From IMG/VR virus record IMGVR_UViG_3300045540_000020, positions 1 to 30,430 of that record: a stretch of 30,430 nt of DNA; one strand, given 5' to 3'. The stretch is from a virus. Taxonomy: Duplodnaviria; Caudoviricetes. A model generated the notes under the pieces. The model was given only the letters and a program-made list of their open reading frames with translations, did not search any database and was not told the origin of the DNA. The number at the start of each line of letters is the position of its first letter. Position 1 is the first letter of the stretch. Of the stretch, positions 20,281-25,754 are shown one piece after another. The translations under genes were made by a program, and so were the position numbers.

Positions 20281-20480
20281 TTACATATCCTTTTCTTTGC
20301 ATCTCTAAAGTTAGACTCAAACATCCAGCCTACGCACTGTTTATCAATATCGGGTGATGTTACTGACGCTACACCTTCAGTAAATCCGCGATGATATTCG
20401 TTTTGCATTTTGTTCATGACAGCCAAGCCAATGCCAGGTATAGACGCAACAACCACAATTAAGATCATTCCCCAGCGCAT
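20277..20480 (-). CDS. Small membrane-anchored hypothetical protein
   Basis: 67 aa with a hydrophobic N-terminus; overlaps both neighbours in the operon. Confidence 0.6.
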   Translation of the reverse strand: MRWGMILIVVVASIPGIGLAVMNKMQNEYHRGFTEGVASVTSPDIDKQCVGWMFESNFRDAKKRICK

Positions 20481-20665
20481 AGCTGCCTAATCTTTTTAAC
20501 ATCAATGCCAAAGGTCTCATGTACTCGCAAGATGATTTCTGCTGATGGGACTATCTTCTTATTGCGAATCTTTGACAGCGTAGAGATACCGATCTTCATG
20601 TGTAAGGCAATAGCACGATCATTTTTGAAGCCATGATTTTTGATCAAATAATCTAACAATTCCAT
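20465..20665 (-). CDS. Cro/XRE-type helix-turn-helix regulator
   Basis: DRAIALHMKIGISTLSKIRN HTH pattern; AAAGGA RBS. Confidence 0.8.
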   Translation of the reverse strand: MELLDYLIKNHGFKNDRAIALHMKIGISTLSKIRNKKIVPSAEIILRVHETFGIDVKKIRQLCAGE

Positions 20666-20683
20666 TTTTATCCTTTGAAGGGA

Positions 20684-20714
20684 GGAATATTCTCAATTAT
20701 TTTGGAATATTCCA
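20684..20714. promoter_or_regulatory. Pair of GAATATTC palindromes, candidate operators
   Basis: GAATATTC at 20685 and 20705 (20 bp apart); the second extends to the perfect TGGAATATTCCA. Directly upstream of the HTH gene. Confidence 0.4.
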
Positions 20715-20728
20715 CTTAAATATTTAGT

Positions 20729-20800
20729 GCGGGGTCACCAGAACAAGCAAACATGAAGGAGAACTGGCCCCCGCTGCCGGAGTTACTCGCCACTACCGGC
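20729..20800 (-). ncRNA. Candidate two-hairpin structured RNA with an anti-SD loop
   Basis: GC-rich island. On the - strand: a GCCGG/CCGGC hairpin, then a GCGGGG-GCCAG / CTGG-TGA-CCCCGC stem with loop UUCUCCUUCAUGUUUGCUUGUU. Confidence 0.4.
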
Positions 20801-21244
20801 TAGGCGTGCAAACATCAAGCTATTTATTTCTTTATGCCTTTGTTTGTGGCATGGCTGACATAACCATACTACGTCTAAAGGCTTGTCATAATCTTCATGA
20901 TGAGCTAACGATTTTAATGAGTTGCATTTACAACATGGCTGCCTAACTAAAACTCCAGATTTAATTGCCCTTGCAACTGCGTTATGACATTTTGTGCGTC
21001 TTTTATCTGCTTTTCTCCATGCTGCATTCACCTCATCTGCTAATTTTTTTCTAGCAGGTAATTTTGATCTCTCTTTATCATAAGAACGTATTTTTTCAAT
21101 ATTTTTTAATCTATGCTCAAGAACATCTTTTTTATTACATTCTTTGCATTTATTTACATGACCATCAGCCATTGCTGAATGAGCATAAAACTCATCTAGT
21201 GGCTTGATGGTCAGACACTTAAAGCATTGTTTTGAATGAATCAT
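20783..21244 (-). CDS. Zn-binding HNH-like endonuclease
   Basis: CFKC...CKEC N-terminal finger and C-terminal CCKC...AHHEDYDKPLDVVWLCQPCH. Confidence 0.7.
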   Translation of the reverse strand: MIHSKQCFKCLTIKPLDEFYAHSAMADGHVNKCKECNKKDVLEHRLKNIEKIRSYDKERSKLPARKKLADEVNAAWRKADKRRTKCHNAVARAIKSGVLVRQPCCKCNSLKSLAHHEDYDKPLDVVWLCQPCHKQRHKEINSLMFARLAGSGE

Positions 21245-22953: not shown

Positions 22954-23086
22954 ATTTAGCTGTCTACCCGCCTAATTAGGGTTATTTAAGCGGGGGCAAA
23001 ATAGCAGGAATAGCACCGTCACACGGTCTAAGGTGTTTTTAAAAAAGAGAGATTTTTATGAGTTTGTGGCGCAAAAGGAGAAAAAA

Positions 23087-23473
23087 ATGGACTTACCAAA
23101 GAAAGATAGTCGCAGATACCAAATTTGTGTGGCTTTTGCTAATTCTGGCACGATGACATTACATAGTGTAGTGGAGGAATACGGTCTATTTGGCTTTAGA
23201 GACAAGAAGCGGCTTTCATCTGAGATGAACTACTTATGCACTACTGGCTGCATTAAGAAGCTCAAAGAGGCTTATATGCCTACCTATGAGCTGCGGCTGG
23301 CTGTACAGTCGTTTGATAAGCCTGGACTGGTTAAACCACGCGAAGCAGTCCCATTTCGGGAGCTGTCTGACAAGTTTATGCTGCCGAAGGTTAGCCCACG
23401 CGGTGAGCCACTTAGGGAAATTTCATACATTGGGTTAGGAGCAAGCATTGCAGATCATGTCTACCGCTTCTAA
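23087..23473 (+). CDS. Hypothetical protein, possibly winged-helix
   Basis: ATG 23087 follows AAGGAG (track start 23033 less likely). Confidence 0.65.
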   Translation: MDLPKKDSRRYQICVAFANSGTMTLHSVVEEYGLFGFRDKKRLSSEMNYLCTTGCIKKLKEAYMPTYELRLAVQSFDKPGLVKPREAVPFRELSDKFMLPKVSPRGEPLREISYIGLGASIADHVYRF

Positions 23474-23600
23474 AAAGCCTATTCCTGATTATGTTTTTAA
23501 ACAAAAAGCGTGTCCAGGATGCAAGAGAACAAGATCAGAAAAGAACTTTGAAGGTGGTGATCTATGTAGGATTTGCGTACTTAGAAAAGTTCAGATATAG
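23457..23600 (+). CDS. 47 aa zinc-ribbon protein (not in ORF track)
   Basis: MSTASKKPIPDYVFKQKACPGCKRTRSEKNFEGGDLCRICVLRKVQI*, two CxxC pairs. Confidence 0.55.
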   Translation: MSTASKKPIPDYVFKQKACPGCKRTRSEKNFEGGDLCRICVLRKVQI

Positions 23601-23601
23601 T
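23573..23601 (+). promoter_or_regulatory. Sigma70-type promoter for the structured leader and replication operon
   Basis: TTGCGT-17 bp-TATAGT, nearly the same hexamers as the leftward promoter. Confidence 0.6.
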
Positions 23602-23605
23602 TGTA

Positions 23606-23713
23606 GTGTGCTTGACGGCACACAAAACGAGTAAGCCTTAGATGGGACTCTGCTGGTTACTCACCAGTCCGTCAACACCAGAAATGGTGAGAGTCTCACC
23701 TAGGGCTTTTTTT
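23606..23713 (+). ncRNA. c4-antisense-like structured RNA (upstream target hairpin, three-way junction, U-tract)
   Basis: Four stems readable by eye, a GAAA tetraloop, a T7 tail, and two single-stranded seeds complementary to upstream sites. Structure is seen; the family assignment is by analogy. Confidence 0.6.
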
Positions 23714-23726
23714 ATTGGAAAAGCAA

Positions 23727-24344
23727 ATGAAAATTAAAAACTGGTCAAAATTTCAACATTTTAAAGACCGTAGACCACCTTGGGTAAAGCTGTATAGAGA
23801 CATTCTTGATGATGTTGAATGGTTTGAATTAGACCCGAAACTAGCAAAAATACTTGTAATGCTTTGGTTAATTGCAAGCGAAGAACAAGATGGAATTTTG
23901 CCAGATGCTAAAAAGTTAGCATTTCGTTTGAGACTTTCTGAAAAGGAAATTAATTCTGCAATTATCGGCTTGTCTCATTGGCTGGAACAGTCTGATATCG
24001 ATGGGATATCATCAGGATATCAAGATGATCTACCAGAGACAGAGACAGAGAAAGAGAAAGAGGAGAGAGAAAAGAAAGAAAAGTTAGCGCAAGATGTAAA
24101 ACTTGGCTTTATTGAGTTTTGGAAATGTTATCCAAAAAAGATAGCAAAGCCAAATGCAGAAAAAGCATGGATGAAGATTGCTCCAGATGTTGATTTAACG
24201 AAAAGAATAATTCATGCGATTTCTGAACAAAAACTTCTTGAACGTGAGGAGCAGTTTATTCCTTACCCTGCAAGTTGGCTCAATGCTCGACGTTGGGAAG
24301 ATCAAACTCAAGCAACTCAACAAAATCATAAGTGGTGGAAATAA
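23727..24344 (+). CDS. Phage replication initiator (replisome organiser-like)
   Basis: IKNWSKFQHFKDRRPPWVKLY N-terminus, low-complexity ETETEKEKE linker, C-terminal FIEFWKCYPKK...PYPASWLNARRWED; upstream of primase and helicase genes. Confidence 0.75.
   Translation: MKIKNWSKFQHFKDRRPPWVKLYRDILDDVEWFELDPKLAKILVMLWLIASEEQDGILPDAKKLAFRLRLSEKEINSAIIGLSHWLEQSDIDGISSGYQDDLPETETEKEKEEREKKEKLAQDVKLGFIEFWKCYPKKIAKPNAEKAWMKIAPDVDLTKRIIHAISEQKLLEREEQFIPYPASWLNARRWEDQTQATQQNHKWWK
23994..24083. other. Candidate replication origin inside the initiator gene
   Basis: GATATC at 23994, 24005 and 24016 (11-bp period), degenerate GATCTA at 24027, then a 49-nt purine tract. Confidence 0.45.
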
Positions 24345-24763
24345 TGAGCTTAGACAATCTTATCGGTAGGTTATCTAAGGTCAGAGGCAAGAACGGTTCT
24401 TATACCGCTTGCTGTCCAGCTCATGACGATAAACATCCATCTTTAGCGATTAGAGAACTTGATGATGGCCGAATTCTATTGAAATGCTTTTCTGGTTGTT
24501 CAGTGTCAGAAATTTGTGGCGCTGTTGGCATTGATCTGTCAGAGTTATTCCCCCCTGACGATAATTTTAGGCAAATAGCTTCCCCTGTAAAAAAACCTTT
24601 CTACGCTGCTGATCTTATCAAGTTATTAGCGTTTGAAGCTATGGTTGTTGGGGTTGCTGCTAATTCGTTGGCTAACGGTAACGCTTTAAGTCAGATTGAT
24701 CTTGATCGAATGAAAGTTGCTCAAATGAGAATTATGGAAGTAGTGGGGTATATCAATGATTGA
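24344..24763 (+). CDS. Primase zinc-binding-domain (CHC2-like) protein
   Basis: ACCPAHDDKHPSL...LLKCFSGC; no TOPRIM domain evident; TAATG coupling at 24344. Confidence 0.75.
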   Translation: MSLDNLIGRLSKVRGKNGSYTACCPAHDDKHPSLAIRELDDGRILLKCFSGCSVSEICGAVGIDLSELFPPDDNFRQIASPVKKPFYAADLIKLLAFEAMVVGVAANSLANGNALSQIDLDRMKVAQMRIMEVVGYIND

Positions 24764-25754
24764 GCAAATAGCTGAAAGGCTTGATGAGGCTAGAAAACTC
24801 AGATTGATTAAACCTCAAGATATTGACATTGATAAATATCTGAAGAACACTGACGTATCAGCTAAGGTGAAATCCGTGTCTGTCTACATGGATGGCGTAG
24901 TTGATGGACTAATTAATCCTAGCTCAGATGATATATGCCCTATGCCGTGGCCTATAACGCACCAGGACTTCAATTTCAGGCTAGGTGAGGTGACGGTATA
25001 TGCTGGCTCAAACGGAGGCGGCAAGAGCCTTATAACGGGCTTAATAGGCCTTCATTTGATAAAGCTAGGTAAGCGTGTTTGCATTGCATCGTTTGAGATG
25101 AAACCGCAGACCACAATTTTGCGGATGATGCGTCAATTTTGTGGTGAGAATTTAAACGATCCTTTGGTGAACGATAGAAATAACTATGTAAAAAGCATAG
25201 GCAATAGATTTTTATCATTTGCTTCTGAGAATTGTTTTATCTACGATCAACAAGGTAGCACCACGCCACAGATGACGATAGCAATGGCTAGGTATTGCGC
25301 TGTCGAGTTAGGAATACAGCACATTTTTATCGATAGTTTGATGAAATGTGTAATGTCTGAGGATGATCTGAACGAGCAAAAATCATTTGTGAACGAATTG
25401 TGTGCGGTTGCTAGAGATCATAACGTGCATATTCACTTAGTTCATCATATTCGCAAACTGCAAAGCGAGGAGGTACAACCTGGTAAGAATGATTTAAAAG
25501 GTTCAGGTTCTATTGCCGACCAGGTTGACAATGTATTTTTAGTTTGGAGAAACAAAAAGAAAGAAAACAATCGACGTAACGGTATGCAGTACGAAGAATC
25601 TGATCCAGATACGTTTTTAATGTGCCAAAAGCAGCGTAACGGTGAAGCAGAGGAATTTTACGGATTGTTCTATCACCACAATAGTCAGCAATTTATTGAG
25701 AAGTTAGGCGGTCAGCCATTCGATTTTGATAACAAAGGACGGTTTCGTGCATGA
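24756..25754 (+). CDS. DnaB-like (SF4) replicative helicase
   Basis: Walker A GSNGGGKS, SFEM, Walker B IFIDSL, HLVHHIRK, LKGSGSIADQVD and KQRNG. Confidence 0.9.
   Translation: MIEQIAERLDEARKLRLIKPQDIDIDKYLKNTDVSAKVKSVSVYMDGVVDGLINPSSDDICPMPWPITHQDFNFRLGEVTVYAGSNGGGKSLITGLIGLHLIKLGKRVCIASFEMKPQTTILRMMRQFCGENLNDPLVNDRNNYVKSIGNRFLSFASENCFIYDQQGSTTPQMTIAMARYCAVELGIQHIFIDSLMKCVMSEDDLNEQKSFVNELCAVARDHNVHIHLVHHIRKLQSEEVQPGKNDLKGSGSIADQVDNVFLVWRNKKKENNRRNGMQYEESDPDTFLMCQKQRNGEAEEFYGLFYHHNSQQFIEKLGGQPFDFDNKGRFRA

Follow-up and report, generated by a model that had tools for sequence, protein, structure and literature searches.

The 30,430-nt tailed-phage record IMGVR_UViG_3300045540_000020 (Duplodnaviria; Caudoviricetes; completeness 87%), called here the window and meant at its full length, carries in front of its DNA-replication genes a predicted leader RNA of about 110 nt which, judged from its sequence, probably works like the c4 antisense RNA of phages P1 and P7, descends from it, and is in form a circular permutation of C4. 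A -10 box is followed by a hairpin displaying target a, by target b, by a three-way junction that has a 17-bp closing stem and exposes the seeds a' and b', and by a U tract and a start codon. The leader appears to be common to hundreds of phages (about 410 estimated), and it probably serves as a conserved, promoter-led and self-sensing transcription attenuator of the genes behind it.

Seeds and targets covary on a shared scaffold

Upstream regions were compared for 58 of the 62 loci found by a search for homologues of the window's initiator, and these have one of two kinds of leader (that of the window or an int-alpA kind) or none. A pattern restricted to the junction core, from which targets a and b were left out, returned 120 loci from 19 of the 64 parts of IMG/VR, the basis of the estimate given above. 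Together with the earlier loci these make 118 distinct leaders, 117 of which have the full architecture; the other row, L123, has no hairpin, is a chance match and was dropped. L207, a genome match with neither junction nor model score, stays inside the 120-leader set used for the downstream-target, scaffold and U-tract/folding counts. Alignment A1 has 109 rows and excludes L124 and L001, the latter having the same leader as the window.

The initial annotation of the window had read the two seeds as complements of the two upstream sites and called for an alignment of related leaders, across which this complementarity is retained. Target a is complementary to a' in 116/117 leaders (100 TTGGCGG, 16 TTGACGG), and b pairs with b' over at least five bases in 111/117. 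For 35 distinct b' seeds the mean b:b' helix is 5.83 bp, against 3.12 +/- 0.17 when seeds and targets are permuted (maximum 3.83 of 20000), while 24 distinct seed/target pairs outside the training alignment, two cultured phages included, give 5.75 bp against 3.14 +/- 0.22 (maximum 4.33 of 20000). The one exception to a:a' complementarity, L003:949-1058, is near-identical to the window and has target a TTGGCAG opposite seed CCGTCAA, with one mismatch; it looks like a recombinant, since L316, L353 and L407 carry the matched TTGGCAG/CTGCCAA pair together with the b seed of L003.

In the 109-row alignment 98.6% of cells are paired, against 32-42% in slid-register controls, and 30/43 pairs change on both sides, among them all seven b:b' columns and the one variable a:a' pair. 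The b:b' columns are paired in 97.9% of cells, and b:b' pairs rank second, fourth and fifth in mutual information among all column pairs. The pairs of the target hairpin H1 covary with 100% of cells paired, the closing stem has compensatory changes in 15/17 pairs, G-U pairs being common, and 3/4 counted pairs of the short capped arm covary. Unaided, RNAalifold recovers from the 109 homologues the same hairpin and junction as are predicted for the window, where the leader folds at -53.1 kcal/mol (z -4.83; equalled by 0/200 shuffles), so that the fold proposed from the single sequence stands.

Groups with an identical 16-nt stem strand have up to six b' seeds each, the target changing along with the seed, and dozens of b alleles occur on identical scaffolds. 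Kinship is thus no explanation of the covariation, and the G-U pairs in b:b' and in the stems point to the RNA level. (A scaffold tree gives 13 changes of a and 62 of b, but it is based on 40 columns and is not relied on.) An account of the repeats as DNA operator half-sites or a cruciform, with no RNA switch, would draw on the interrupted inverted repeat formed by a...b and b'...a'; it is largely refuted, and we give it hardly any credence, in view of the tolerance of G-U pairs throughout, the strand-specific -10 box and U tract, the dozens of unrelated b alleles and the homology to a known RNA.

Architecture of the leader in the window

Every segment named in the initial annotation was found again on the sequence (Table 1). 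The promoter and the run of seven Ts, also named there, hold as sequence positions, although the consensus scan of the window lists neither the TTGCGT/TATAGT pair as a promoter nor the leader's stem and T7 as a terminator, the branched loop exceeding the scan's loop limit of 8. Across the family both features recur. A TAnnnT hexamer (at least 4/6 matches) lies 9-17 nt ahead of the target loop in 133/144 distinct upstream regions, whereas the same criterion gives 1-12 regions in nine control windows; stem and U tract of the predicted terminator are both conserved, the tract having at least six residues behind the stem in 115/120 leaders. The H1 loop reads UUGRCG or UUGGCA in the family, seed a' has a median unpaired probability of 0.97 in full-length folds, and in the window the ATG lies 13 nt past the U tract. 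Ten of the 13 RNA runs listed hold a small share of the stretch, as contigs only. Four were compared over the leader and the beginning of the initiator gene, and in one RNA run a relative's leader lies within a 976-nt contig, of which ends, strand and level are unreadable; this is evidence neither way.

Table 1. Features of the leader and of the adjoining genes in the window.
Feature	Position	Strand	Details
Small open reading frame with two CxxC motifs	23448..23600	+	Stop codon overlaps -10 hexamer; no PHROG match
Predicted sigma-70 promoter	23573..23601	+	Weak -35 TTGCGT 23573-23578 (only 3/6 consensus matches), 17-nt spacer, -10 TATAGT 23596-23601
Hairpin H1 showing target a	23606..23623	+	GTGTGC 23606-23611 / GCACAC 23618-23623, loop TTGACG
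Target a	23612..23618	+	TTGACGG; complementary to seed a'
Target b	23629..23634	+	GAGTAA; hypervariable specificity site
Closing stem, 5' strand	23635..23651	+	17 bp; pairs with 23690-23706
Seed hairpin GCTGG / CCAGT	23652..23668	+	Loop is seed b' TTACTC, 23657-23662; arm GCTGG(T) 23652-23657 / (A)CCAGT
Junction seed a'	23669..23675	+	CCGTCAA; single-stranded in predicted fold
Short capped arm	23676..23689	+	CACCA-GAAA-TGGTG; occupies the place of C4's open closing stem
Closing stem, 3' strand, and U7 tract	23690..23713	+	Predicted intrinsic terminator with branched loop; T7 at 23707-23713
Replication initiator, first gated gene	23727..24344	+	phrog_9474, phrog_270, phrog_26426
CHC2 zinc-finger primase-like protein	24332..24763	+	PF01807, phrog_6088
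DnaB-like helicase	24756..25754	+	PF03796, phrog_239

A permuted relative of C4

The reference for P1 was the P1 row of the C4 alignment of Weinberg 2010 (PMC2864571) together with the annotated P1 record. The P1 c4 core as given in that alignment reads GCTGG, seed loop, CCAGT and then CTGTCAA (PMC2864571), and the annotated record gives a1 as TTGACAG. The family majority is identical to P1 at 15/17 core positions, both seed-hairpin arms of the window are those of P1 c4, and P1 c4 itself fits the family core pattern. Both RNAs have a GCYGG/CCRGU seed hairpin followed by a 7-nt a' (CUGUCAA in P1; uUgCcAA in the Rfam C4 consensus), linkers of 0/0/7 unpaired positions and a 17-bp closing stem, and in both the targets lie on the same strand in the order a then b, with a shown by a hairpin.

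The order of the arms differs. In the C4 structure line of Rfam the closing stem leads to the short hairpin, then to the seed hairpin and a', and back to the closing stem, whereas in the leader family it leads to the seed hairpin and a', then to the short hairpin, and back to the closing stem. In its predicted fold the junction of the leader is that of C4 with the chain break shifted: the break lies in the arm that follows a' in C4 and in the one that precedes the seed hairpin here; this claim rests on arm order and core homology, since the flanking junction positions agree with P1 at just 8/16. The earlier description of the element as c4-like is therefore borne out for the core and has to be amended for the arrangement. 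There are further departures from C4: the closing stem of the family runs straight into the U tract, its a and b abut the stem where the C4 targets lie about 65 nt upstream, and it has neither a2/b2 downstream targets nor icd/ant. Mature C4 RNA is released by RNase P. C4 gates icd/kil and antirepressor genes, while the first genes behind the family leaders are initiators, endonucleases, recombination proteins or small unknown proteins. On four points, then, the leader RNA departs from C4: the covariance-model score, the order of the arms, the lack of downstream targets and the kind of gene behind it.

The C4 covariance model (RF01695) scores P1 (68.8 bits), P4 (74.9 bits) and three viral loci within 55-75 bits but matches none of seven family loci at E<=1, nor the window, and it misses them because of the permuted arm order. 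An all-family Rfam scan of the window likewise gave nothing at gathering threshold and only chance matches at E<=10. The models isrK (RF01394) and c4-a1b1 (RF03163) score the P1 and P4 leaders and no family locus, so the Rfam check suggested in the initial annotation, for C4 and c4-a1b1, leaves the window without a match while the P1/P4 controls score. Canonical C4 RNAs preceded by isrK or c4-a1b1 leaders occur on the IMG/VR contigs L318, L366 and L376 with an a' seed, CTGYCAA, that is common to the leader family, and cross-talk or common ancestry is possible.

Downstream target copies, reported absent when the window was first read, are absent from the family also. Within 150 nt past the U tract a b site was found in 0/118 leaders and both targets in 0/118 (the P1 control being positive), a 6-mer of a occurs in 9/118, and the whole window has no second a+b pair on either strand; a2/b2 copies are accordingly rejected. 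A TTGG behind the U tract was also rejected as a target copy, being independent of the a allele and explained by the U tract and the ribosome site. On the minus strand of the window, within 20465-20830, a 66-aa helix-turn-helix (HTH) gene is preceded by a GC-rich hairpin region with GAGTAA in a loop and no matching a site; this GAGTAA, at 20783-20788 (-), was not counted as a target, as no a site is nearby and the region folds weakly (z -1.82).

Members and carriers

Looser scans, whose pattern did include an a-like site, added members, and all 26 loci of one such scan score with covariance model R1. Over all loci retrieved, the distinct cores number 125 and the b' loops 59; a:a' occurs as four allele pairs, and 124/125 are complementary. 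Two carriers are cultured, Pseudomonas phage AH02 (86.6 bits with R1) and Leptolyngbya phage Lbo-JY16 (74.5 bits). Two of 120 examined matches of a GTDB pattern scan are real, both on short contigs of metagenome-assembled genomes. With just 25 candidates per genome scored, model R1 gave 0/151 genomes in the genus of L203 and 1/151 in the order of L201, and one PLSDB query gave no leader match. The member L436:1501-1611, in a bacterial genome, has the fourth a allele (TTGGTCG / CGACCAA) and changed seed-hairpin arms, and L559 and L575 are distant, GC-richer members that share the b pair GAGTAA / TTACTC with the window and differ from it in the a allele.

The next three genes of the window match PHROG and Pfam families of initiators, CHC2 zinc-finger primases and DnaB-like helicases. 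Among the 112 leaders followed by a frame of at least 30 aa, classed by cluster representative, 80 precede a gene in a cluster with an initiator or primosome representative (several unrelated kinds), a class inflated by some 14 loci that entered through the initiator search; the others are followed by HNH, GIY-YIG or T5orf172 genes (12), ParB-like genes (4) or unassigned genes (16). A position before the initiator operon, as first described, is thus common and not obligatory. An obligate link between leader and initiator is rejected, since in AH02 the leader lies behind ninB, downstream of the replication genes, in Lbo-JY16 it lies one gene ahead of the Erf and exonuclease genes, and further members precede RecE- or RecT-like genes. 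Start codons lie 7-16 nt past the U tract in nearly all members.

Free-standing HNH, GIY-YIG or T5orf172 genes stand right behind the U tract in L041, L106, L119, L121, L140, L156, L166, L175 and L185, and in L568, L569, L573, L576 and L579, which gives the impression of a preferred place of insertion directly after the leader. Upstream of the leader the window has two genes (23033-23473 and 23448-23600, both +) with no Pfam or PHROG match, which in many relatives are replaced by a gene ending in a WQL-x-x-LRP-x-WF motif that we take to be Cro-like.

The carriers are mostly phages without integrase and CI. A tyrosine integrase is found in 2/30 carrier records (1/17 of those at least 90% complete), in 1/5 further records and not in the window, and S24 peptidase and resolvase in 0/31 carrier records; AH02 is described as lytic (PMC8567786). 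Carriers may have a protein repressor, since one carrier record is classed as a provirus and the window has the 66-aa HTH gene.

A candidate mechanism: attenuation relieved in cis and restored in trans

Taking as established the structure, the seed-target covariation, the homology to c4, the U tract and the lack of downstream targets, we infer the remainder of the mechanism as follows. Because the targets precede the seeds and nest with them, pairing in cis is possible before the 3' strand of the stem exists; because both targets lie upstream and none downstream, the seeds can act only on the cis fold and the terminator; and because either trans pairing abolishes the cis fold, the sign is presumably on in cis and off in trans. 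In a lone nascent transcript the two seeds would already be paired with their targets by the time the 3' strand of the stem emerges, and this would tether the 5' strand at both ends and delay the terminator, letting the polymerase read into the initiator-primase-helicase genes. Terminated transcripts would accumulate as a closed junction of 73-76 nt with a' and b' exposed, which would pair in trans with both targets of newly made transcripts and so restore termination. Pairing in cis thus most likely delays the terminator, and pairing in trans most likely restores it. Expression of the replication genes would then be under negative feedback, and co-infecting phages of the same b allele would meet with seed-specific interference, so that the leader RNA would control replication or immunity. 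P1/P7 heteroimmunity maps to the c4 seeds. In C4 the closing strand comes straight after a', while in the permuted order of the family the short arm comes first, and this would create the time window for pairing. With b:b' formed, moreover, a 17-bp helix would be unable to wind while the polymerase holds the 3' end, a topological argument of our own.

Folding of the growing transcript was computed with nested-model programs. In truncated transcripts the probability of a:a' exceeds 0.5 in 117/120 leaders; in a random sample of 40 leaders the two helices persist (median about 0.95) and give way to the stem once 6-8 nt of its 3' strand are present. When a and b are masked, stem closure moves from a median of 8 to 5 nt and comes earlier in 116/119 leaders and later in none. 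Other results weigh against this mechanism. At full length the terminator fold (-49.1 kcal/mol) is better by about 19 kcal/mol than a forced a+b fold (-30.2), and because it wins at equilibrium, read-through needs a kinetic or topological trap outside these programs. The computed delay of closure is just about 3 nt overall and 1 nt (7 versus 6) for the window leader L001, in which the probability of b:b' never rises above 0.37, and a branched loop of 38 nt is unusual for a terminator. A terminated RNA that keeps its 5' part might quench its own a'. There is little sign of a resident state in which immunity would be useful, with integrase in 1/17 near-complete records and AH02 described as lytic (PMC8567786). 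The related IsrK RNA, as described in passages on it, activates in trans and does not repress (PMC4825925).

The terminator might instead be constitutive and leaky, the short RNA acting only in trans and post-transcriptionally, by binding a and b on the read-through mRNA and so bringing about its cleavage or decay, or the RNA's own processing. Dominance of the terminator fold at equilibrium, an A/U-rich, single-stranded linker between a and b, and the description of C4 and CI as processed RNAs in part of PMC5499578 would suit this possibility. We hold it to be unlikely, as the targets, some 100 nt away from the start codon, leave the ribosome site uncovered, and the fixed nested spacing predicts the cis fold in nearly all members. 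The same pairing could also have the opposite sign, the short RNA raising downstream expression in trans through positive feedback of the IsrK kind; it might, for instance, release a fold made inactive by cis pairing. The passages on IsrK report that in trans it raises read-through about 8-fold and translation about 140-fold (PMC4825925); the IsrK hairpin loop resembles target a, and positive feedback would suit a lytic phage. This too appears very unlikely, for blocking a and b speeds terminator closure in 116/119 leaders and delays it in none, folds of the window show no helix masking the ribosome site, and in nearly all members the start lies 7-16 nt behind the U tract. The initial annotation had allowed for tuning of either termination or translation by the seeds; translation is left without support, and termination is what we infer.

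We thus return to attenuation that is relieved in cis and restored in trans. If it holds, the permuted c4 would be a one-piece, protein-free concentration sensor with target, effector and terminator in 110 nt and a kinetic window for self-antitermination created by the permutation, and it would allow RNA-only counting of genome copies and the silencing of like-seeded co-infecting phages in carriers lacking integrase and CI. We put this whole reading forward only tentatively, as somewhat short of an even chance.

Comparison with other regulatory RNAs

In P4, terminator t1 lies between seqA and CI and depends on seqA. According to passages of two papers, P4 CI is a same-strand RNA that gates the replication operon by premature termination through pairing with seqA and seqC (PMC4825925, PMC10111431), a likeness to the leader proposed here, and IsrK acts on its own read-through transcript, with a sign opposite to that of our proposal (PMC4825925, PMC10111431). 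The H1 loop also resembles UUGGcA, the loop of the second hairpin in the isrK consensus of Rfam. Unlike P4 CI, the leader family has no seqC or kil frame, packs target, effector and terminator into one 110-nt unit, and is carried by tailed phages of 30-60 kb whereas P4 is a satellite; isrK and c4-a1b1 leaders have two tandem hairpins and a separate terminator where the leader has a single hairpin before b.

ColIb-P9 Inc/repZ and I-complex RNAI, as far as a later paper and its reference list describe them (PMC10724649), share with the leader a UUGGCG target loop upstream of an initiator, competition between cis activation and trans inhibition at one site, and compatibility set by a few loop changes. 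The regulator there is a countertranscript and control is translational, whereas the leader has same-strand seeds, two of them, and termination as its predicted output. One could nevertheless suppose that an opposite-strand countertranscript of the Inc/CopA type is the regulator, with the reverse complement of a' as its -35, and that pairing in cis forms an activating pseudoknot of the ColIb-P9 kind. Titles of ColIb-P9 papers in that reference list name the motif of the loop, UUGGCG (PMC10724649), and in most members the minus strand has TTGRCG followed after 16-18 nt by CAGAGT or a similar hexamer. That hexamer, a poor -10 for an I-complex-type countertranscript and the only one seen, has C as its first letter and, in about one-fifth of leaders, no T at its end (CAGACA 21/120, CAGGAC 3/120, and others); a countertranscript is complementary by construction, so that b' need not follow b; and the core is c4-derived. 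We therefore regard this arrangement as highly improbable.

Of the remaining candidates, c4-2 (RF02944) is described in part of PMC5737381 as a probable distant homologue of a known RNA; its model matched none of five records at E<=1, where no positive control responded either, and gave nothing in the all-family scan. Two motifs of Fremin et al. (2023), DNAVirus_4653 (124 nt, 43 sequences) and DNAVirus_187 (49 nt, 122 sequences), resemble the leader in coming from freshwater tailed phages and lying within 25 bp of DUF1376 / DUF4373 genes, but in the tables at hand carry no seed-target, c4 or mechanism annotation and are both marked as having no terminator (PMC10690425). Compared by table entries, they may be anonymous versions of the leader RNA. 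The leader is missing from Rfam 15, the nearest candidates, c4-2 and DNAVirus_4653/_187, having been compared without their alignments. No account of a permuted or terminator-fused c4 was found in the literature, older subscription papers lying mostly outside the reach of the search, and passages of a paper on RNA permutation make no mention of a permuted c4 (PMC10085705).

An alternative leader in the same slot

The slot in front of homologous initiators can also be filled by the int-alpA RNA (RF02996), which may even follow the same promoter; among 13 loci scanned Rfam gave three int-alpA matches (L007, L056, L035), all in this other leader class. The junction and sequence of int-alpA are unlike those of the leader, model R1 does not score it, and its loop is complementary to downstream sites close to the start codon. 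In int-alpA-type leaders (L005-L058, for example L007:2896-2990, L017, L030 and L057) a variable loop complements one or two sites between RNA and start codon, and over 19 distinct pattern matches, one of them probably chance, loop-site pairing averages 6.16 bases against 4.07 when permuted (maximum 4.89 of 2000), which suggests that int-alpA also is a seed-programmed switch. The close relatives L005-L013 and L015 (for example L007:2860-2900) have the promoter region in common with the window and retain a hairpin whose loop reads TTGGCGG, with no CCGCCAA nearby; int-alpA and a different allele of the initiator follow. A cassette swap of leader and initiator appears to have left an orphan target behind.

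Significance

These results extend RNA control of the C4/CI type from temperate and satellite phages of enterobacteria to a large environmental group that is mostly without integrase and CI, and describe a regulatory RNA that circular permutation has rebuilt, plausibly with a gain of function. The cultured carriers AH02 and Lbo-JY16 make the leader RNA testable now. Many natural seed alleles on one scaffold would be useful as orthogonal transcription attenuators and, should the RNA indeed be a concentration sensor, the at least 59 seed alleles would form a ready-made library of them. For the phages themselves, the hypervariable seed predicts from sequence alone which of them should interfere with one another in a shared cell.
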